Positions 1,048 to 26,171 of a DNA stretch of 53,523 nucleotides are shown piece by piece; the first letter of the stretch is position 1, and every line of letters begins with the position of its first letter. Origin of the DNA: a virus; IMG/VR virus record IMGVR_UViG_3300029825_000389, positions 1-53,523 of that record; one strand, given 5' to 3'. The notes beneath the pieces were generated by a model that ran no database searches, was not told the DNA's origin, and saw nothing but the letters and a program-made list of their open reading frames with translations. The position numbers and the translations under genes are program-made.

Positions 1048-1200
1048 TTACTTATTATACTTTTTCAATATTAATTCAATTGCTTCATCAAGTAACCTTG
1101 ACTGTGGTATTTTAGTTTCTCTTGAAAGTCCTTTAAACTTTTTCAACAATTCAATATCAATTGAATTTGTATAGCGTTCTCTGTTTTTTAAATCACTCAT
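1048..1200 (-). CDS. 50-aa ribbon-helix-helix (CopG/Arc-like) protein, divergent from tnpB
   Basis: ORF below the track cutoff. Translation: MSDLKNRERYTNSIDIELLKKFKGLSRETKIPQSRLLDEAIELILKKYNK. SD gaggtgata. Clear paralog of 24470..24628. Confidence 0.65.
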   Translation of the reverse strand: MSDLKNRERYTNSIDIELLKKFKGLSRETKIPQSRLLDEAIELILKKYNK

Positions 1201-1217
1201 AATATCACCTCAAAAAT

Positions 1218-1269
1218 AGTATATAATATATTTAAACTTATTGCAACTTACGTAAACTTATGATATAAT
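1218..1269. promoter_or_regulatory. Back-to-back promoters sharing one palindromic -35 (TTGCAA, 1241-1246)
   Basis: Plus strand: TTGCAA, 17 nt, TATAAT (1264-1269), driving tnpB. Minus strand: TTGCAA, 17 nt, TATACT (1218-1223), driving the RHH gene. AACTTA boxes at 1234-40, 1245-50 and 1254-60 are spaced about 10 bp apart. Confidence 0.6.
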
Positions 1270-1289
1270 AGTATTAAGAGGTGATAAAT

Positions 1290-2378
1290 ATGTTAAAAGC
1301 TTACAAATACAGGATATATCCAAACAAAGAACAAAGAATATTTCTAGCTAAAACCTTTGGGTGTACTAGATTTATCTATAATCAAATGTTAGCAGATAGA
1401 ATTAAATCTTATCAGGAGAACAAAGAATTGGATATAAAAAAAATAAAATATCCAACACCAGCACTATATAAACAAAAATTTCCTTGGCTAAAAGAAGTAG
1501 ATAGTTTAGCTTTAGCCAATGCACAAATGAATTTGGATAAATCCTATAAAAATTTCTTTAGGGATAAATCTGTAGGATTTCCTAAATTCAAAAGTAAGAA
1601 AACTAATTATAATAGCTATACAACCAATAATCAAAAAGGAACGGTATACATTGAAAACAGTCATGTAAAAGTACCTAAGTTAAAATCTATGATTAAAATA
1701 AAACAACATAGAGAGTTCACAGGCTTGATAAAATCCTGCACTATATCACAAGTACCAAGTGGCAAGTATTATATATCAATTTTAGTAGATAGTGAAAATT
1801 TCGTTCTACCAGTTATAAATAAAAAAATAGGTGTAGATGTTGGACTTAAAGAATTTGCAATATGTTCTGATGGGTATAGAGAACCTAATCCAAAACATCT
1901 TAGAAAATCAGAAAAAAGGCTCATTAAATTCCAAAGGGATTTATCGAGAAAGCAAAAAGGTAGTAACAATAGACGTAAAGCTAGGCTAAAAGTAGCAAAA
2001 CTACATGAAAAAATATCTAATCAAAGAGCAGATTTCTTACATAAGTTATCAATTAAACTAATCAGAGAAAACCAATCTATAGTTATTGAGGACTTAAGAG
2101 TAAATAATATGCTAAAGAATCATAAGTTAGCAAAAGCAATAAGCGAAGCTTCATGGTCAGAATTTAGAAGGATGTTAGAGTATAAGGCTAATTGGTATGG
2201 CAGGGAAATAATAATTGCACCATCTAATTATGCTAGTTCTCAATTATGTTCAGTTTGTGGGTATAAAAATAAAGAAGTAAAAAATCTAGCACTTAGAGAA
2301 TGGATTTGCCCTCAATGTGGTACACACCACGATAGGGATATAAATGCTAGTAAAAATCTACTGAAATTAGTTATATGA
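1290..2378 (+). CDS. tnpB: TnpB (OrfB) RNA-guided nuclease, IS200/IS605 family
   Basis: Canonical N-terminus [15 protein letters not shown]...FGCTRFIYN. RuvC-like D in GVDVGLK. C-terminal zinc ribbon CSVCG...CPQCG. The start is moved to ATG 1290 because GTG 1281 lies inside the SD. Confidence 0.9.
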
Positions 2379-2485
2379 TTTTGGTAATAAACTGAGGTTG
2401 GTTCGACCTTTAGAGCATGGGTAAACTTGCTACAGTAGTAGTATTGACCATGAAGCCATCCACTTCTATAAGTGGTGGTAGTTCA
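2379..2485 (+). ncRNA. Probable 3' part of the omega/right-end guide RNA scaffold of tnpB element 1
   Basis: A GC-richer structured tail lies immediately after the tnpB stop and ends in the right-end hairpin 2456-2478. Established biology of IS605 TnpB places the guide RNA here. The 5' end (probably inside tnpB) and the guide sequence are not determined. Confidence 0.4.
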
Positions 2486-2517
2486 CACATATAATGTATT
2501 GTATTGCATACAAAAAT

Positions 2518-2553
2518 AAAGCCTAGAATAGTGTAAAGGCTATTCTAGGCTTT
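2518..2553. terminator. Bidirectional terminator between tnpB element 1 and the end of the lysis operon
   Basis: aaagcctagaata pairs with tattctaggcttt, a 13-bp stem. Confidence 0.7.
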
Positions 2554-2581
2554 GAATTATTACTAAAATTATATTTTAATT

Positions 2582-22538: not shown

Positions 22539-22865
22539 TCACCCCATCATCCTAACATAAGGCAAAGGTAACAGAGAAGTTACATTCTCACTTAACCCAT
22601 TTTGGGTAGTGCCGTAAGTTATACTTCTTGACCCCTGCGTAAACTGTTTGATACCTTCATTGCCTTTCTTTTGAAACTGCTCCATTACATAGGCAATTAC
22701 CGCATCCGGATAATTTGCTTCAATTGATGCATTATTTAAACCATTATTAAGATATTTTGAAATAGATGTATCTGCTCTACGGATATAAATGTTTAATATA
22801 CCATCCTGAGATATATCATCAATAGGTATATTTTTAAGTGTTTTTATATCATCTAAAACCGCCAT
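22539..22865 (-). CDS. gp6-like head-tail connector protein
   Basis: The N-terminal DDIK..L.I style and position match the connector family. Confidence 0.55.
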   Translation of the reverse strand: MAVLDDIKTLKNIPIDDISQDGILNIYIRRADTSISKYLNNGLNNASIEANYPDAVIAYVMEQFQKKGNEGIKQFTQGSRSITYGTTQNGLSENVTSLLPLPYVRMMG

Positions 22866-22873
22866 AATTTCAC

Positions 22874-23047
22874 CTACTCTACTTCAATAATTTTTTTCGA
22901 TTTAAATTTATCTAAATCTTTATCTGCAATTTCAATACGGTCTCCTACTTTACAAATATCAGTCCCATATTTTATGCACTTTAAAAGTTTATATGTTTTC
23001 TTTTCAACTGGTTTTACTTCTGGATTAGCCTCGGCCATTATAATCAT
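22874..23047 (-). CDS. 57-aa hypothetical protein
   Basis: Short ORF MIIMAEANPEVKPVEKKTYKLLKCIKYGTDICKVGDRIEIADKDLDKFKSKKIIEVE; weak SD. Confidence 0.3.
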   Translation of the reverse strand: MIIMAEANPEVKPVEKKTYKLLKCIKYGTDICKVGDRIEIADKDLDKFKSKKIIEVE

Positions 23048-23218
23048 TCCGTTACGTAAAACTTATAAAACTCTATAAAAACTTTATAAAAGTTAATGTT
23101 CACTTCCTCATTCAATGTGTCCGATTTTACCTAAGCTACTTTCGTTTGCTATAACACTCCAAAGGCATAAATTCGGATGTAAACTCACCCTACATATTAG
23201 TAGTATCTTTTAAAATGA

Positions 23219-24376
23219 TTAAACTACTAATTTATATCTTGATAAATTGATACTTGCTTGAAAATCTCTATCCATAACATTTCCACATTCACATTTATAT
23301 ACTCTATCTGAAAGTTTTAAATCTTTCTTAATAGCTCCACAACATGAACATAGTTTTGATGATGGAAACCACCTATCTGCTTCTACAAATTCAATTCCAT
23401 ATCTTTCAGATTTATATTTAATCATAGTTTTGAATTTATCTAATCCTTGTTGTGCTATTGCTTTAGATAAATGTCGATTTTTCATCATGCCTTTAACGTT
23501 TAGACATTCCATGACTATCCTTGACGGCTTGTTTCTCACTATCTTAGTAGACTCTTCATGTCTATAATTGGTACGAATGTTTGCAAGTTTTATATGCAAT
23601 TTAACAATTTCTTTTTCAAGTTTTATAATATTGCTTGTTTTTACGTAACTTTCTCCTTTCTTATTTTTAATATATTTTCTTGATACTCTGCGTTGCAATC
23701 TACGCATTTTCTTTTCTAATTTCTTAACTCTATGCGTTTTGTTAATATTTTTAGATACAATACCATTGCTACATATTGCTAAATCTTTTACCCCAACGTC
23801 TATTCCAATACTCTCTGTAGTTAATTCAGGCTTAATATCCTCAATCTCAACCCCAACAGATATATACCAATTCATACCGTCAAAACTAACCCTTGGATTG
23901 ATATATTTGACATCTGTAGGTATTCTATTTTTTTCAGAAAGTTTAACCCAATTAAGTTTTTGCTTATTCTTCTTTTTGCTACTTGCAAAACCTTCAAACT
24001 TAACATGAGTTGCAGTAAATTGAATTTTATCAGTATCTTGATAAAATTTAGGTGGTGAATGTTTTTTACTTTTAAATTTTGGTCTTTTAGCTAAACCTTT
24101 AAAAAATCTTTTATAAGCTTCACAAGCATCTTTTATGGCTTGTTTAGACACGTTGTTACTAATATTGTTTAGCCATTTATATTGTTGTTGTTTCTTTAAT
24201 TGAGTAAGTTCTTTTCTTAAATCACCATCATTAATAAACTTCCCACCATTTTTATAATTTTCCTCTTGTTTTGCAAGTGTCCAGTTATAAATAAATCTAG
24301 CTGTACCTGCATATTGAAATAATTTAGTTTTTTGTTTATTGTTAGGCTCTAATCTAACTTTAATCCCCTGTATCAT
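23219..24376 (-). CDS. tnpB: TnpB (OrfB) RNA-guided nuclease, second and divergent copy
   Basis: KVRLEPNNKQKTKLFQYAGTARFIYNW..., GIDVGVK, and the C-terminal CSCCG...CECG zinc ribbon. Confidence 0.9.
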   Translation of the reverse strand: MIQGIKVRLEPNNKQKTKLFQYAGTARFIYNWTLAKQEENYKNGGKFINDGDLRKELTQLKKQQQYKWLNNISNNVSKQAIKDACEAYKRFFKGLAKRPKFKSKKHSPPKFYQDTDKIQFTATHVKFEGFASSKKKNKQKLNWVKLSEKNRIPTDVKYINPRVSFDGMNWYISVGVEIEDIKPELTTESIGIDVGVKDLAICSNGIVSKNINKTHRVKKLEKKMRRLQRRVSRKYIKNKKGESYVKTSNIIKLEKEIVKLHIKLANIRTNYRHEESTKIVRNKPSRIVMECLNVKGMMKNRHLSKAIAQQGLDKFKTMIKYKSERYGIEFVEADRWFPSSKLCSCCGAIKKDLKLSDRVYKCECGNVMDRDFQASINLSRYKLVV

Positions 24377-24400
24377 ATTTACACCTCCCTTTCTAAATTT

Positions 24401-24452
24401 ATTATATCACAATGTCCAAGGACTTGCAAGGACTATTCTAATATAATATACT
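24401..24452. promoter_or_regulatory. Back-to-back promoters sharing a palindromic -35 TTGCAA (24424-24429)
   Basis: Minus strand: TTGCAA, 17 nt, TATAAT (plus 24401-06), driving tnpB. Plus strand: TTGCAA, 17 nt, TATACT (24447-52), driving the RHH gene. Direct repeats AAGGACT at 24418-24 and 24428-34. Confidence 0.6.
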
Positions 24453-24469
24453 ATTTTTGAGGTGATAAC

Positions 24470-24628
24470 ATGGCTAACAAAGATTTAAAAAATAGAACTC
24501 CTTTTTCAAATGCAGTTAATACCGAATTACTCAATAAACTAAAAGTTTATTCTAAAGAAACTGGAATACCAATTTCAAAACTATTAGATAAAGCAATAGA
24601 GTTATTTCTGAAGTCTACTAGAAAATAG
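24470..24628 (+). CDS. 52-aa ribbon-helix-helix protein, paralog of 1048..1200
   Basis: MANKDLKNRTPFSNAVNTELLNKLKVYSKETGIPISKLLDKAIELFLKSTRK. The upstream string atatactatttttgaggtgata is shared with element 1. Confidence 0.65.
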   Translation: MANKDLKNRTPFSNAVNTELLNKLKVYSKETGIPISKLLDKAIELFLKSTRK

Positions 24629-24697
24629 TAGGCTTTTATAATTTCTTATAAGTTTTCTTTAACTGTTACCAGCCTTCCTAAATTAATTAGTCCACTT

Positions 24698-25738
24698 TTA
24701 TGCTATCGTCCCTATAAATACGCTGTCTATTGCTTCAAAACTTGGTAAAGCCACCATTGAAGCTTTTGTTAATACATTTACTGGATCAGTCTTCTTAATG
24801 GTTGTAATTGCGACACCTGTGTTTACAATTTCAACACTTGCGTTACTACCTGCCATAAGATCACTTTCTTCCGGGGTCGTACCATAATAAGTATTACCAA
24901 GATTTCCATCTGGAATAAGTGTGAATGTTTCATCCGGGAAGAATAACGTTGCAACTCCTGCACGAGTGAGGAACTTTTTATTATATACAGCAACATTTAT
25001 ATCAAGTTTGTCAAACAAGTAAGTTTTAAGCATTGCATCAGTAAGGATTATATTCTGACCACTTGTAACATTCATATCAAGTTTAATTTTTTGGTTATGA
25101 AGTAGATAGTTCCAAGTCTTCCTTGTGCATATTCCACCTGTAGGTCTTACTCCTGTATCATCCTCAATTGTATCCTGCCATCTTTTAATGTCTTCAATAG
25201 GATCTGAATTTACATAATCACTCCACTTTGCAGTTGTTAAAAGTATCTCTTTGTGAGAACTTTTAAACTTATAATCATAGTTATAAGCTTGCCTGTTCGC
25301 TGAAATACCAATCAAACCAGTTGAAAGTAACTGCATCCTCATTCTCTCTGCTGTTACATCTGCACTATTAACGAGATTCGCACCATCAGCATATATTCTT
25401 TGGATAATAGGCATAATATAAGCAGCATTTGCGGCACCCATGGCTTTATTAATTTCAATCCTGTCTCTCTCTTTAATAAGAAAACCATCTTTAAAAAATG
25501 GCATTTCGGTTTCTATTTTGTCTACTCCGATTCTGTTTCTTATAGTTGTTTCTGTATCAAATGCTGCAGGACTTAATTCAACTGGCAAACCGTCAGAACC
25601 TTTGAACCAACTAAGATCTATTCCGAGTTGTTTCTGTGGTGGAAATAAAGTTGCGCCTAAATATGGTATTTTGTTTGAACCTACTGTACTCCAATATGTT
25701 GCTATTTCTTTTGGGTTCACTAAATCAAAAACATTCAT
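24698..25738 (-). CDS. Major capsid protein (phage capsid E-like family)
   Basis: The N-terminus MNVFDLVNPKEIATYW...YLGATLFP... is typical of the E-like capsid family; position. Confidence 0.8.
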   Translation of the reverse strand: MNVFDLVNPKEIATYWSTVGSNKIPYLGATLFPPQKQLGIDLSWFKGSDGLPVELSPAAFDTETTIRNRIGVDKIETEMPFFKDGFLIKERDRIEINKAMGAANAAYIMPIIQRIYADGANLVNSADVTAERMRMQLLSTGLIGISANRQAYNYDYKFKSSHKEILLTTAKWSDYVNSDPIEDIKRWQDTIEDDTGVRPTGGICTRKTWNYLLHNQKIKLDMNVTSGQNIILTDAMLKTYLFDKLDINVAVYNKKFLTRAGVATLFFPDETFTLIPDGNLGNTYYGTTPEESDLMAGSNASVEIVNTGVAITTIKKTDPVNVLTKASMVALPSFEAIDSVFIGTIA

Positions 25739-25760: not shown

Positions 25761-26171
25761 TTATTTTATAAACAGAACTCTGCCTTTTAAAGCCGTAACT
25801 GCATCAGCCACTGGTACAGCTGGTAAATTGTCTAAACCTATAAAACCATGTATAACCATTGACCCACTTGCTGGACCATATGTGACATCAACGTCTTCTA
25901 AAAGCACACCTTCCGCGTCCACTCCTGCACCTGCCGTACCAGTAGCTCCACCTTGAGTATTATGCTCAGTAGCTTTAATAGTGTCATTTGCTAATATAGC
26001 ATTTGCTCCGCCTGTTCCACCTATAATAGTTCCTGCTGATACAATCTTTTTTCCATCTGAATTAGCTGTAATTCCTGTATCATCTACAGTTACACCAATT
26101 GCAACAAAATGGTTAGAAAACTTAAGTATATCCTTTGAACTTAAATAGTTAGTTGTTACAAATTTACTCAT
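25761..26171 (-). CDS. Capsid-associated / head decoration-type protein
   Basis: Lies between the scaffold and capsid genes; G/T/A-rich. Confidence 0.45.
   Translation of the reverse strand: MSKFVTTNYLSSKDILKFSNHFVAIGVTVDDTGITANSDGKKIVSAGTIIGGTGGANAILANDTIKATEHNTQGGATGTAGAGVDAEGVLLEDVDVTYGPASGSMVIHGFIGLDNLPAVPVADAVTALKGRVLFIK

Follow-up and report, generated by a model that had tools for sequence, protein, structure and literature searches.

What kind of insert lies between the major capsid gene and the connector genes of a phage, and does the small regulator gene beside its nuclease gene belong to it? We addressed this question for the IMG/VR record IMGVR_UViG_3300029825_000389, which was analysed over its whole length of 53,523 nt (positions 1-53,523; hereafter the window). 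An initial annotation had described a second tnpB gene in the window, paired with a divergent gene for a ribbon-helix-helix (RHH) protein, and Pfam domains matching both assignments were found at 23219..24376 on the minus strand (tnpB2) and 24470..24628 on the plus strand (RHH2). These genes are part of a mobile element of about 1.6 kb, here called element 2, which occupies window 23049-24672 and consists of three parts: tnpB, a guide RNA and the divergent RHH gene. With a probability of about 0.78, we consider element 2 a non-autonomous insertion sequence of the IS607 family whose TnpB belongs to the RAGATH-18-guided class and whose RHH protein represses a promoter shared by both genes. The insert had first been given as 23048-24697. 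That span has to be shortened, as 24673-24697 is native phage spacer.

The ends of element 2 were determined from copies at other loci. At the right end, 14 aligned loci share ...TTTATAGAGTTTTATAAGTTTTACGTAACGG and diverge immediately past the final GG, corresponding to window 23049. Homology to independent copies spans 23049 or 23067 to 24662-24682. On the left, the conserved core TAACAGTTAAAGAAAACTTATAAG lies further out than both the stop codon and the terminator hairpin of RHH, which places the RHH gene inside the element. Two candidate left boundaries, TAAC (24668) and AAGG (24676), were dropped in favour of CTGG (24672), since the GG of relatives is spaced 5-6 nt from a conserved AC(A/T)G. 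Copies were present at unrelated sites, including upstream of a tail tape-measure gene (L171-L178), on three further viral contigs (L088, L097 and L107) and in Bacillus phage vB_BceS_LY4, whose annotation already names the RHH gene. Near-identical units occupy other sites in L179 and L171-L178. At L088/L211 (IMGVR_UViG_3300029825_000258), an 11-nt sequence, GGTGATAAAAA, is common to both junctions, resembling a 9-nt target duplication that is not expected from IS607 or IS605 transposition.

The chromosome of Clostridium sp. BJN0013 contains two 2.09-kb RHH-tnpB copies that are 97.8% identical and have different flanks on both sides, and a unit of this type was found in a third context in a metagenome. 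Judged from these sequences, the RHH gene moves together with tnpB, and the BJN0013 copies are independent proof of this. In the BJN0013 copies (CP162495.1; L186 3264-3590, and L187), the RHH gene is separated from the left end by a group I intron (Rfam Intron_gpI, 84 bits), which makes this unit an IStron. Their junction dinucleotide is TG and not GG. For element 2 itself an IStron identity was rejected, as the window has no Intron_gpI match in Rfam and only 44 nt lie between the left end and the RHH stop codon.

The predicted RNA-guided nuclease encoded by tnpB2 has ISFba1 TnpB as its best match among solved structures (PDB 8IAZ, E = 1.4e-81). Its catalytic triad (D193, E290 and D371) is intact and a CxxC...CxC zinc finger is present; the catalytic residues of ISFba1 TnpB are D194, E290 and D371 (Ren et al., Cell Research 2024, PMC11061315). 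With an intact RuvC triad, tnpB2 was rejected as a TldR, a nuclease-dead TnpB-like repressor. No transposase gene was found in element 2 or elsewhere in the window, where a fragment of a large serine recombinase at 4-234 is the sole recombinase. Lacking a serine transposase gene, element 2 would not move by itself. In many viral relatives, among them ones with the right end of element 2, tnpB is immediately preceded and overlapped by a gene of roughly 200-230 aa. Translation of this gene in four relatives (L087, L093, L105 and L106) revealed a serine-recombinase catalytic motif and a MerR-type helix-turn-helix; for one of the four, MerR and Resolvase domains were confirmed by Pfam. By these motifs, the upstream gene is the IS607 transposase.

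Other tnpB forms were also seen. Six viral contigs (L085, L089, L091, L092, L094 and L100) have 'solo' tnpB units without a recognisable left end, transposase or RHH gene. In these units, homology is confined to a stretch that begins roughly 15 nt ahead of the tnpB start codon and finishes at the right end. In one metagenome contig of the same phage (L166 145-1302), tnpB is called as two open reading frames (ORFs) of 65 aa and 310 aa, representing either a frameshifted copy or a low-coverage assembly error.

The guide RNA was identified just downstream of tnpB2. A RAGATH-18 motif at 23104-23165 (minus strand) scored 69 bits against a threshold of 44.9, and it is the single Rfam family found in the whole window. 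An alignment of 18 sequences of the RNA region showed many compensatory changes in the RAGATH-18 stems. It also showed a long-range pairing between CGUU(A/G) in the 5' flank and (U/C)AACG at the very end, which covaries as AU in 10 sequences and GC in 8. This pairing matches pseudoknot PK2 of ISFba1, and four of its five pairs are kept in the window copy. On the basis of the PK2-like pairing, the scaffold ends with 23049 and the guide begins with 23048. The predicted 20-nt guide, the length found optimal for ISFba1 (PMC11061315), is unique in the window. The features of element 2 and its surroundings are listed in Table 1.

Table 1. Features of element 2, its neighbouring phage genes and element 1 (window positions)
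Feature	Position	Strand	Basis and remarks
tnpB, 385 aa, predicted RNA-guided nuclease	23219..24376	-	Pfam HTH_OrfB_IS605, OrfB_IS605, Cas12f1-like_TNB
Guide-RNA scaffold (omega RNA / reRNA)	23049..23218	-	5' flank, RAGATH-18 motif (23165-23104), 55-nt 3' flank ending ...UAACGG
Putative 20-nt guide AAUGAUUAUAAUGGCCGAGG	23029..23048	-	directly past scaffold end; phage sequence spanning the DUF7210 start codon
Arc-like RHH gene, 52 aa	24470..24628	+	Pfam RHH_3, E = 2e-19; putative repressor of both promoters
RHH terminator, hairpin then T-run	24610..24636	+	terminator scan; conserved in other copies (left-end alignment); no minus-strand T-run
Bidirectional promoter and putative operator	24401..24452		shared -35 TTGCAA at 24424-24429
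Right-end terminal motif TTATAGAGTTTTATAAGTTTTACGTAACGG	23049..23078	-	14-locus right-end alignment; motif matches in 28 loci
Left end CTGGTAACAGTTAAAGAAAACTTATAAGAAATTATAAAAG...	24629..24672	-	imperfect inverted repeat of right end
Native phage spacer AAGTGGACTAATTAATTTAGGAAGG, left of insert	24673..24697	-	ends in GAAGG (24677-24673)
Major capsid protein gene	24698..25738	-	Pfam Phage_cap_E, E = 8e-42; upstream neighbour outside the element
DUF7210 gene	22874..23047	-	Pfam; downstream neighbour
Head-tail connector gene	22539-22865		Pfam; beyond the DUF7210 gene
Element 1	1048-2560		RHH 1048-1200 (-), tnpB 1290-2378 (+)

The surroundings of element 2 indicate where it entered the genome. The window reads TTTAGGAAGG/CTGGTAACAG at the left junction (slashes mark junctions), with AGGAAGG/CTGG... 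on the left and ...AACGG as the right end. We suggest that GAAGG (24677-24673) is the target-adjacent motif (TAM) of element 2 and also contributed to the ribosome-binding site of DUF7210, the gene that follows. Published TAMs of the RAGATH-18/IS607 class are GAGGG and AGGAG (PMC11061315). When about 15 left junctions of relatives were compared by eye, nearly all flanks ended in a purine-rich motif (GAGGG, GGAGG, AGAGG, AAGGG or AGGAG), and relatives that keep the AC(A/T)G left core have this motif 5-6 nt upstream of it. In the CboIStron, crossover by the serine transposase takes place at the terminal GG of the TAM, and the last scaffold bases are ...CGG (Zedaveinyte et al. 2024). Removing the insert on this model reconstructs an empty site of ...TTTAGGAAGG/AATGATTATAATGGCC..., a ribosome-binding site 10 nt ahead of the DUF7210 ATG. 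Related phages have AAAGGTGAT, AAAGGAGAT or GAGGAAAGTGAT at the same place, about 6-9 nt ahead of ATGGCA. Element 2 thus appears to have inserted at the GG of the DUF7210 ribosome-binding site, splitting it. Gene calls on other contigs give DUF7210 a length of 54 aa, and its relatives start with MA some 6-9 nt past the ribosome-binding site; its true start is probably the ATG at 23038-23036 (MAEANPE...).

Insertion at ribosome-binding sites may be a general habit of the RAGATH-18/IS607 class. Among 25 distinct right flanks, 15 have an ORF of 50 aa or longer whose start is no more than 16 nt away from the right end, compared with 14% of control GG sites (p = 2e-7). A purine-rich target motif would account for both the position of element 2 between genes and its orientation, with tnpB in the direction of the phage late operon. 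A literature search on IS607, TnpB and Shine-Dalgarno jointly yielded one TldR/flagellin study, in two versions.

The genes on both sides of element 2 were identified by Pfam, in agreement with the earlier statement that the insert parts the capsid gene from the connector genes. In four related phages (L001, L002, L003 and L021), the capsid gene is followed by DUF7210 with only a short spacer between them. For two of these phages the contig extends further, and there DUF7210 is followed by the connector gene. Among 81 capsid-related phage loci, none has tnpB or RHH at the position of element 2. Two further features of this operon were observed. A terminator-like hairpin directly follows the capsid gene in L001, L002 and L021 and is absent here (24673-24697); without it, the downstream genes would depend on unattenuated read-through, now across the insert. 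In many related phages (including L005, L025, L030 and L032), an insert of about 330 nt splits the homologue of a 136-aa gene that lies between scaffold and capsid (window 25761-26171).

RHH2 and tnpB2 are separated by 93 nt that contain a promoter for each gene. The initial annotation had recognised a palindromic TTGCAA that serves both genes as -35 element with 17-nt spacers, and we found this layout both in the window and in its relatives. On the plus strand, TATACT (24447-24452) is followed by GAGGTGATA and the RHH start codon. On the minus strand, TATAAT (24406-24401), preceded by an upstream TG, is followed by GGGAGGTG and the tnpB start codon. Direct repeats at the hexamer had also been described; these are present, although the repeat is the 8-nt CAAGGACT instead of the 7-nt AAGGACT. 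They lie at 24417-24424 and 24427-24434, 10 bp or one helical turn apart, with TTGCAA inside. The 18-mer containing both repeats is unique in the window.

The same arrangement, consisting of partner -10, 17 nt, TTGCAA (sometimes TTGACA), 17 nt, RHH -10, GAGGTGATA and ATG, was found in nine RHH-tnpB regions, and the shared -35 layout recurs in about 35 distinct loci with RHH homologues. We compared the putative operator among loci whose RHH begins with (N)K(D/E)LK(N/T)RTPxSNA. In these 12 loci, whose partner genes differ, the 20-nt block GTCCAAGGACTTGCAAGGAC is 100% invariant and the next 12 nt vary freely. The two repeats around the hexamer vary in concert: CAAGGACT / CAAGGACT in element 2, GTAAGTT / ATAAGTT in element 1, TGTAGTT / AGTAGTT in Bacillus phage LY4 and TATGACT / AATGACT in L107. 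Across all locus pairs, identity of the RHH N-terminus correlated with operator identity (Spearman 0.58) and not with identity of the adjacent spacers (0.08); as the sequences are related, these values serve as contrasts and not as probabilities. At the sequence level, operator variants follow RHH variants. A role of RHH as an end-binding transposition cofactor was rejected, since the operator sequence is absent from both element ends. A protein search returned at least 249 RHH2 homologues; all 120 among the matches listed carry RHH_3, and the few with a named source are clostridial. A sequence search against solved structures gave nothing significant for RHH2 (best 2KEL, E = 0.67).

The window contains another tnpB-RHH pair, element 1. 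As the initial annotation had noted, the two RHH proteins align well (59% identity over 44 aa) and their leader is conserved, with the 22-nt ATATACTATTTTTGAGGTGATA identical in both elements. The TnpBs are only 32% identical, in line with the earlier view that tnpB2 is of another subfamily: tnpB1 passes the NCBIfam IS200/IS605 TnpB model (520 vs 425 bits), and tnpB2 is assigned to the RAGATH-18/IS607 class. The Rfam scan of the whole window found no RAGATH-18 motif at element 1, and a tnpB1 relative with 62% identity (L233) adjoins a Y1 transposase. By these criteria, elements 1 and 2 belong to different transposon families. The element 1 RHH has its own operator (TAAGTT repeats) around the same shared TTGCAA, and the two repressors of this phage are probably orthogonal.

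The initial annotation had also proposed comparing RHH and TnpB phylogenies. In a small sample, we found no co-divergence, and the RHH module had been exchanged. Element 2 and L171 are 96% identical in RHH and 65% in TnpB, element 2 and L183 of Clostridium botulinum, where the operator is identical, 79% and 51%, and L107 and L183 65% and 83%. Exchange extends beyond TnpB. Among 69 viral loci that encode an RHH2 homologue, tnpB is the neighbour in only 13-14. At least 36 have a divergent free-standing homing endonuclease on the same shared promoter, which may be an HNH with NUMOD4, a SegE-like GIY-YIG with NUMOD3, a plain HNH or a LAGLIDADG enzyme, and in a further 12 the partner is a 285-aa protein without Pfam match. 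The RHH gene with its promoter and operator is thus, on sequence grounds, a module exchanged among TnpB families and homing endonucleases.

Individual loci illustrate the range of partners. RHH2 homologues up to 79% identical are divergently paired with homing endonucleases in IMG/VR loci L196-L252. A 20-nt operator identical to that of element 2 occurs in nine viral loci, with HNH-, GIY-YIG- and TnpB-paired cassettes among them. In another phage (L198 1662-2659), a cassette with identical operator lies between the scaffold and capsid genes.

Based on homologous systems, we propose the following mechanism. RHH dimers would bind the two CAAGGACT repeats and block the shared -35, repressing both tnpB and, by negative autoregulation, RHH itself. 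TnpB and its guide RNA would recognise GAAGG when it precedes the 20 nt that flank the element on the right, a combination found only in an insert-less phage genome. TnpB would cut this predicted target, TTTAGGAAGG/AATGATTATAATGGCCGAGG, and repair of the cut genome with an insert-bearing template would introduce the element, resulting in homing and retention. Movement to new sites would need a serine transposase supplied from elsewhere.

Late transcription would have to cross element 2 to reach the connector genes. Such read-through is plausible because the terminator scan found no terminator-like site on the minus strand of the region, the RHH terminator is one-directional and tnpB lies in operon direction. 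Repression by RHH would limit both nuclease expression and the opposing RHH transcript. For DUF7210, the replacement of AGGAAGG by ...AACGG may have weakened the ribosome-binding site. The guide portion of the RNA holds the DUF7210 start codon, and TnpB binding or processing could affect this gene as well.

Element 2 belongs to a kind already described, namely Arc-like RHH in TnpB elements (2024, 2026) and RAGATH-18/IS607 TnpB (2024). Arc-like RHH genes in TnpB elements were first noted by Zedaveinyte et al. (Science 2024). Like the Arc/IS605-family TnpB elements of Moon, Zedaveinyte, Wiegand and Sternberg (bioRxiv, Sept 2026), element 2 has a small internal RHH gene that is divergent from tnpB on a bidirectional promoter. 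In those elements, binding motifs overlap promoter elements, and arc + tnpB elements without tnpA were among those tested. Clostridial Arc homologues, including those of arc + tnpB-only elements, bind the bidirectional promoter in chromatin immunoprecipitation sequencing and repress a tnpB-promoter reporter, and repression is lost on mutation of the predicted beta-strand or of the motif (bioRxiv 10.64898/2026.09.24.754181). RHH2 homologues with 79% identity likewise adjoin tnpB in Clostridium botulinum, with identical operator. Unlike the elements of the preprint, element 2 lies in a phage late operon and has a single shared palindromic -35 inside tandem direct repeats.

Element 2 resembles ISFba1 (PMC11061315; 8IAZ) in its TnpB of about 385 aa, the equivalent catalytic positions and an RNA composed of 5' flank, RAGATH-18 and a 3' flank with PK2-type pairing, and also in the predicted guide past the right end and the predicted purine-rich TAM. 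It differs in having no tnpA and in its predicted TAM, GAAGG. The ISFba1 paper (Ren et al., PMC11061315) makes no mention of an RHH gene, phage locations or ribosome-binding sites. With CboIStron, an IS607-family element with a group I intron, element 2 shares the serine-transposase family, a scaffold ending in ...CGG next to the guide and, putatively, a GG crossover dinucleotide. Some CboIStron copies have an Arc-like ORF, and the L186/L187 relative is similar, with group I intron, RHH, tnpB and RAGATH-18. Unlike CboIStron, element 2 lacks a group I intron, and its intergenic position makes splicing unnecessary. Like free-standing phage homing endonuclease genes, it is a selfish nuclease gene lodged between essential phage genes; unlike them, its nuclease is predicted to be RNA-guided and the unit has transposon ends.

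Several points weigh against our interpretation of element 2. The repressor, cleavage and homing roles assigned to it are drawn from homologues, and in the published work repression was shown for the tnpB promoter only, with autoregulation a proposal there (bioRxiv 10.64898/2026.09.24.754181). The promoter hexamers alone are not above chance, with 16 promoter-like sites in the region vs 11.7 +/- 3.3 in shuffled sequence, and their significance comes from conservation. Only seven of 80 viral tnpB2 relatives carry RHH, which is therefore an optional accessory. At 180 bits, tnpB2 falls below the NCBIfam IS607_TnpB cut-off of 350 and passes only the generic guided_TnpB model (312 vs cut-off 100); the family assignment accordingly rests on the RNA motif, the 8IAZ match and the transposase of relatives. 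Folded as a single sequence, the guide-RNA region does not outperform shuffled sequence (z = 0.75), and the guide RNA is argued from the Rfam match and covariation instead.

The insertion point is a further weak spot. GAAGG agrees with the published GAGGG at four of five positions, and the left boundary is uncertain by about 4 nt, with GG at 24678-77, 24674-73 and 24670-69. An empty site of the same phage was not found, and the insertion point rests on analogy and on distant relatives, whose capsids are at most 69% identical. All eight contigs of the phage carry the insert, as do all contigs with an identical capsid or identical RHH. A gapped pattern joining both flanks had no match in the metagenome or viral contigs, and the phage record collection held no close relative, its best capsid match (64% nucleotide identity) being to Brevibacillus phages.

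The fixed presence of the insert in all eight contigs without a polymorphic empty site, together with the lack of a transposase beyond the serine recombinase fragment at 4-234 and the frameshifted tnpB (65 + 310 aa) of contig L166, would also fit an immobile relic that the phage tolerates, in which homing by TnpB has ceased and RHH matters only as a silencer of an intrusive promoter pair. We consider this unlikely, as the tnpB of the window is full length with catalytic triad and zinc finger intact, the scaffold scores well above threshold with four of five PK2 pairs kept, both ends are conserved and near-identical units occupy other sites (L179, L171-L178). RHH could instead act on the TnpB protein, as an antitoxin-like or inhibitory partner that blocks the nuclease-RNA complex. 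Such a partner has been modelled bound to TnpB, with a toxin-antitoxin relation proposed (Altae-Tran et al. 2023), and is listed as an open possibility in the preprint (bioRxiv 10.64898/2026.09.24.754181). The archaeal RHH/MazE-TnpB loci have RHH upstream in the same operon, a rearranged RuvC-III (D to H) and no mobility (Altae-Tran et al. 2023), whereas element 2 has divergent genes, a canonical D371, transposon ends and copies at other sites. The same RHH and operator moreover accompany unrelated nucleases (HNH, GIY-YIG and LAGLIDADG), arguing for a DNA target, and operator variants follow RHH variants. Action on the TnpB protein is accordingly improbable in our view.

The RHH gene might also be phage cargo, a small phage regulator that happens to lie beside an inserted tnpB; about 55 of the 69 close RHH homologues in viral contigs are indeed not beside tnpB. 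These tnpB-less loci usually pair RHH with another selfish nuclease on the same promoter, though, and in the window the operator occurs once. RHH lies inside the left end, and RHH, promoter and tnpB are found as one block at unrelated sites. The initial annotation had counted RHH as part of the element, a view that homologous phages with RHH but no tnpB at this site would contradict; among the 81 capsid-related loci, no such phage was found and RHH is present at this junction in none. Chance cargo is therefore the least credible of these alternatives, with very little probability left to it. The interpretation of element 2 as a non-autonomous IS607-family insertion sequence with its own RHH repressor is retained.

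None of these findings overturns current understanding. The association of RHH with homing endonucleases was already mentioned in the Arc-TnpB papers (Zedaveinyte et al. 2024; bioRxiv 10.64898/2026.09.24.754181). What goes beyond them is the promoter layout shared with homing endonucleases, the operator-RHH correspondence and the lack of RHH-TnpB co-divergence. Within one phage structural operon, the locus unites an RNA-guided TnpB of the IS607 class, its RAGATH-18 guide RNA and a putative repressor of the Arc type. Its modest additions to the known elements are the predicted targeting of ribosome-binding sites, a cassette common to homing endonucleases, the correspondence of operator and RHH, and two unrelated Arc-TnpB elements whose operators differ in one phage. 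Three testable ideas follow. A purine-rich TAM may send insertions to same-orientation ribosome-binding sites and make them tolerable in operons. Repressor and operator may be swapped as one module among TnpB families and homing endonucleases. Operator specificity that follows the RHH N-terminal arm and beta-strand could yield small orthogonal repressor-operator pairs.

Finally, we tentatively suggest, with the odds well short of even, that the RHH-operator cassette is a portable burst-then-shut-off switch for selfish nucleases in phages, like Arc on the P22 ant promoter. Phage DNA would enter a cell without RHH, and the strong promoter would fire, giving brief synthesis of TnpB or homing endonuclease. 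The nuclease would cut insert-less competitor genomes until accumulating RHH silenced the cassette and spared the late operon. If true, such a switch together with a target motif at ribosome-binding sites would explain how these elements live between essential genes and spread among co-infecting phages.

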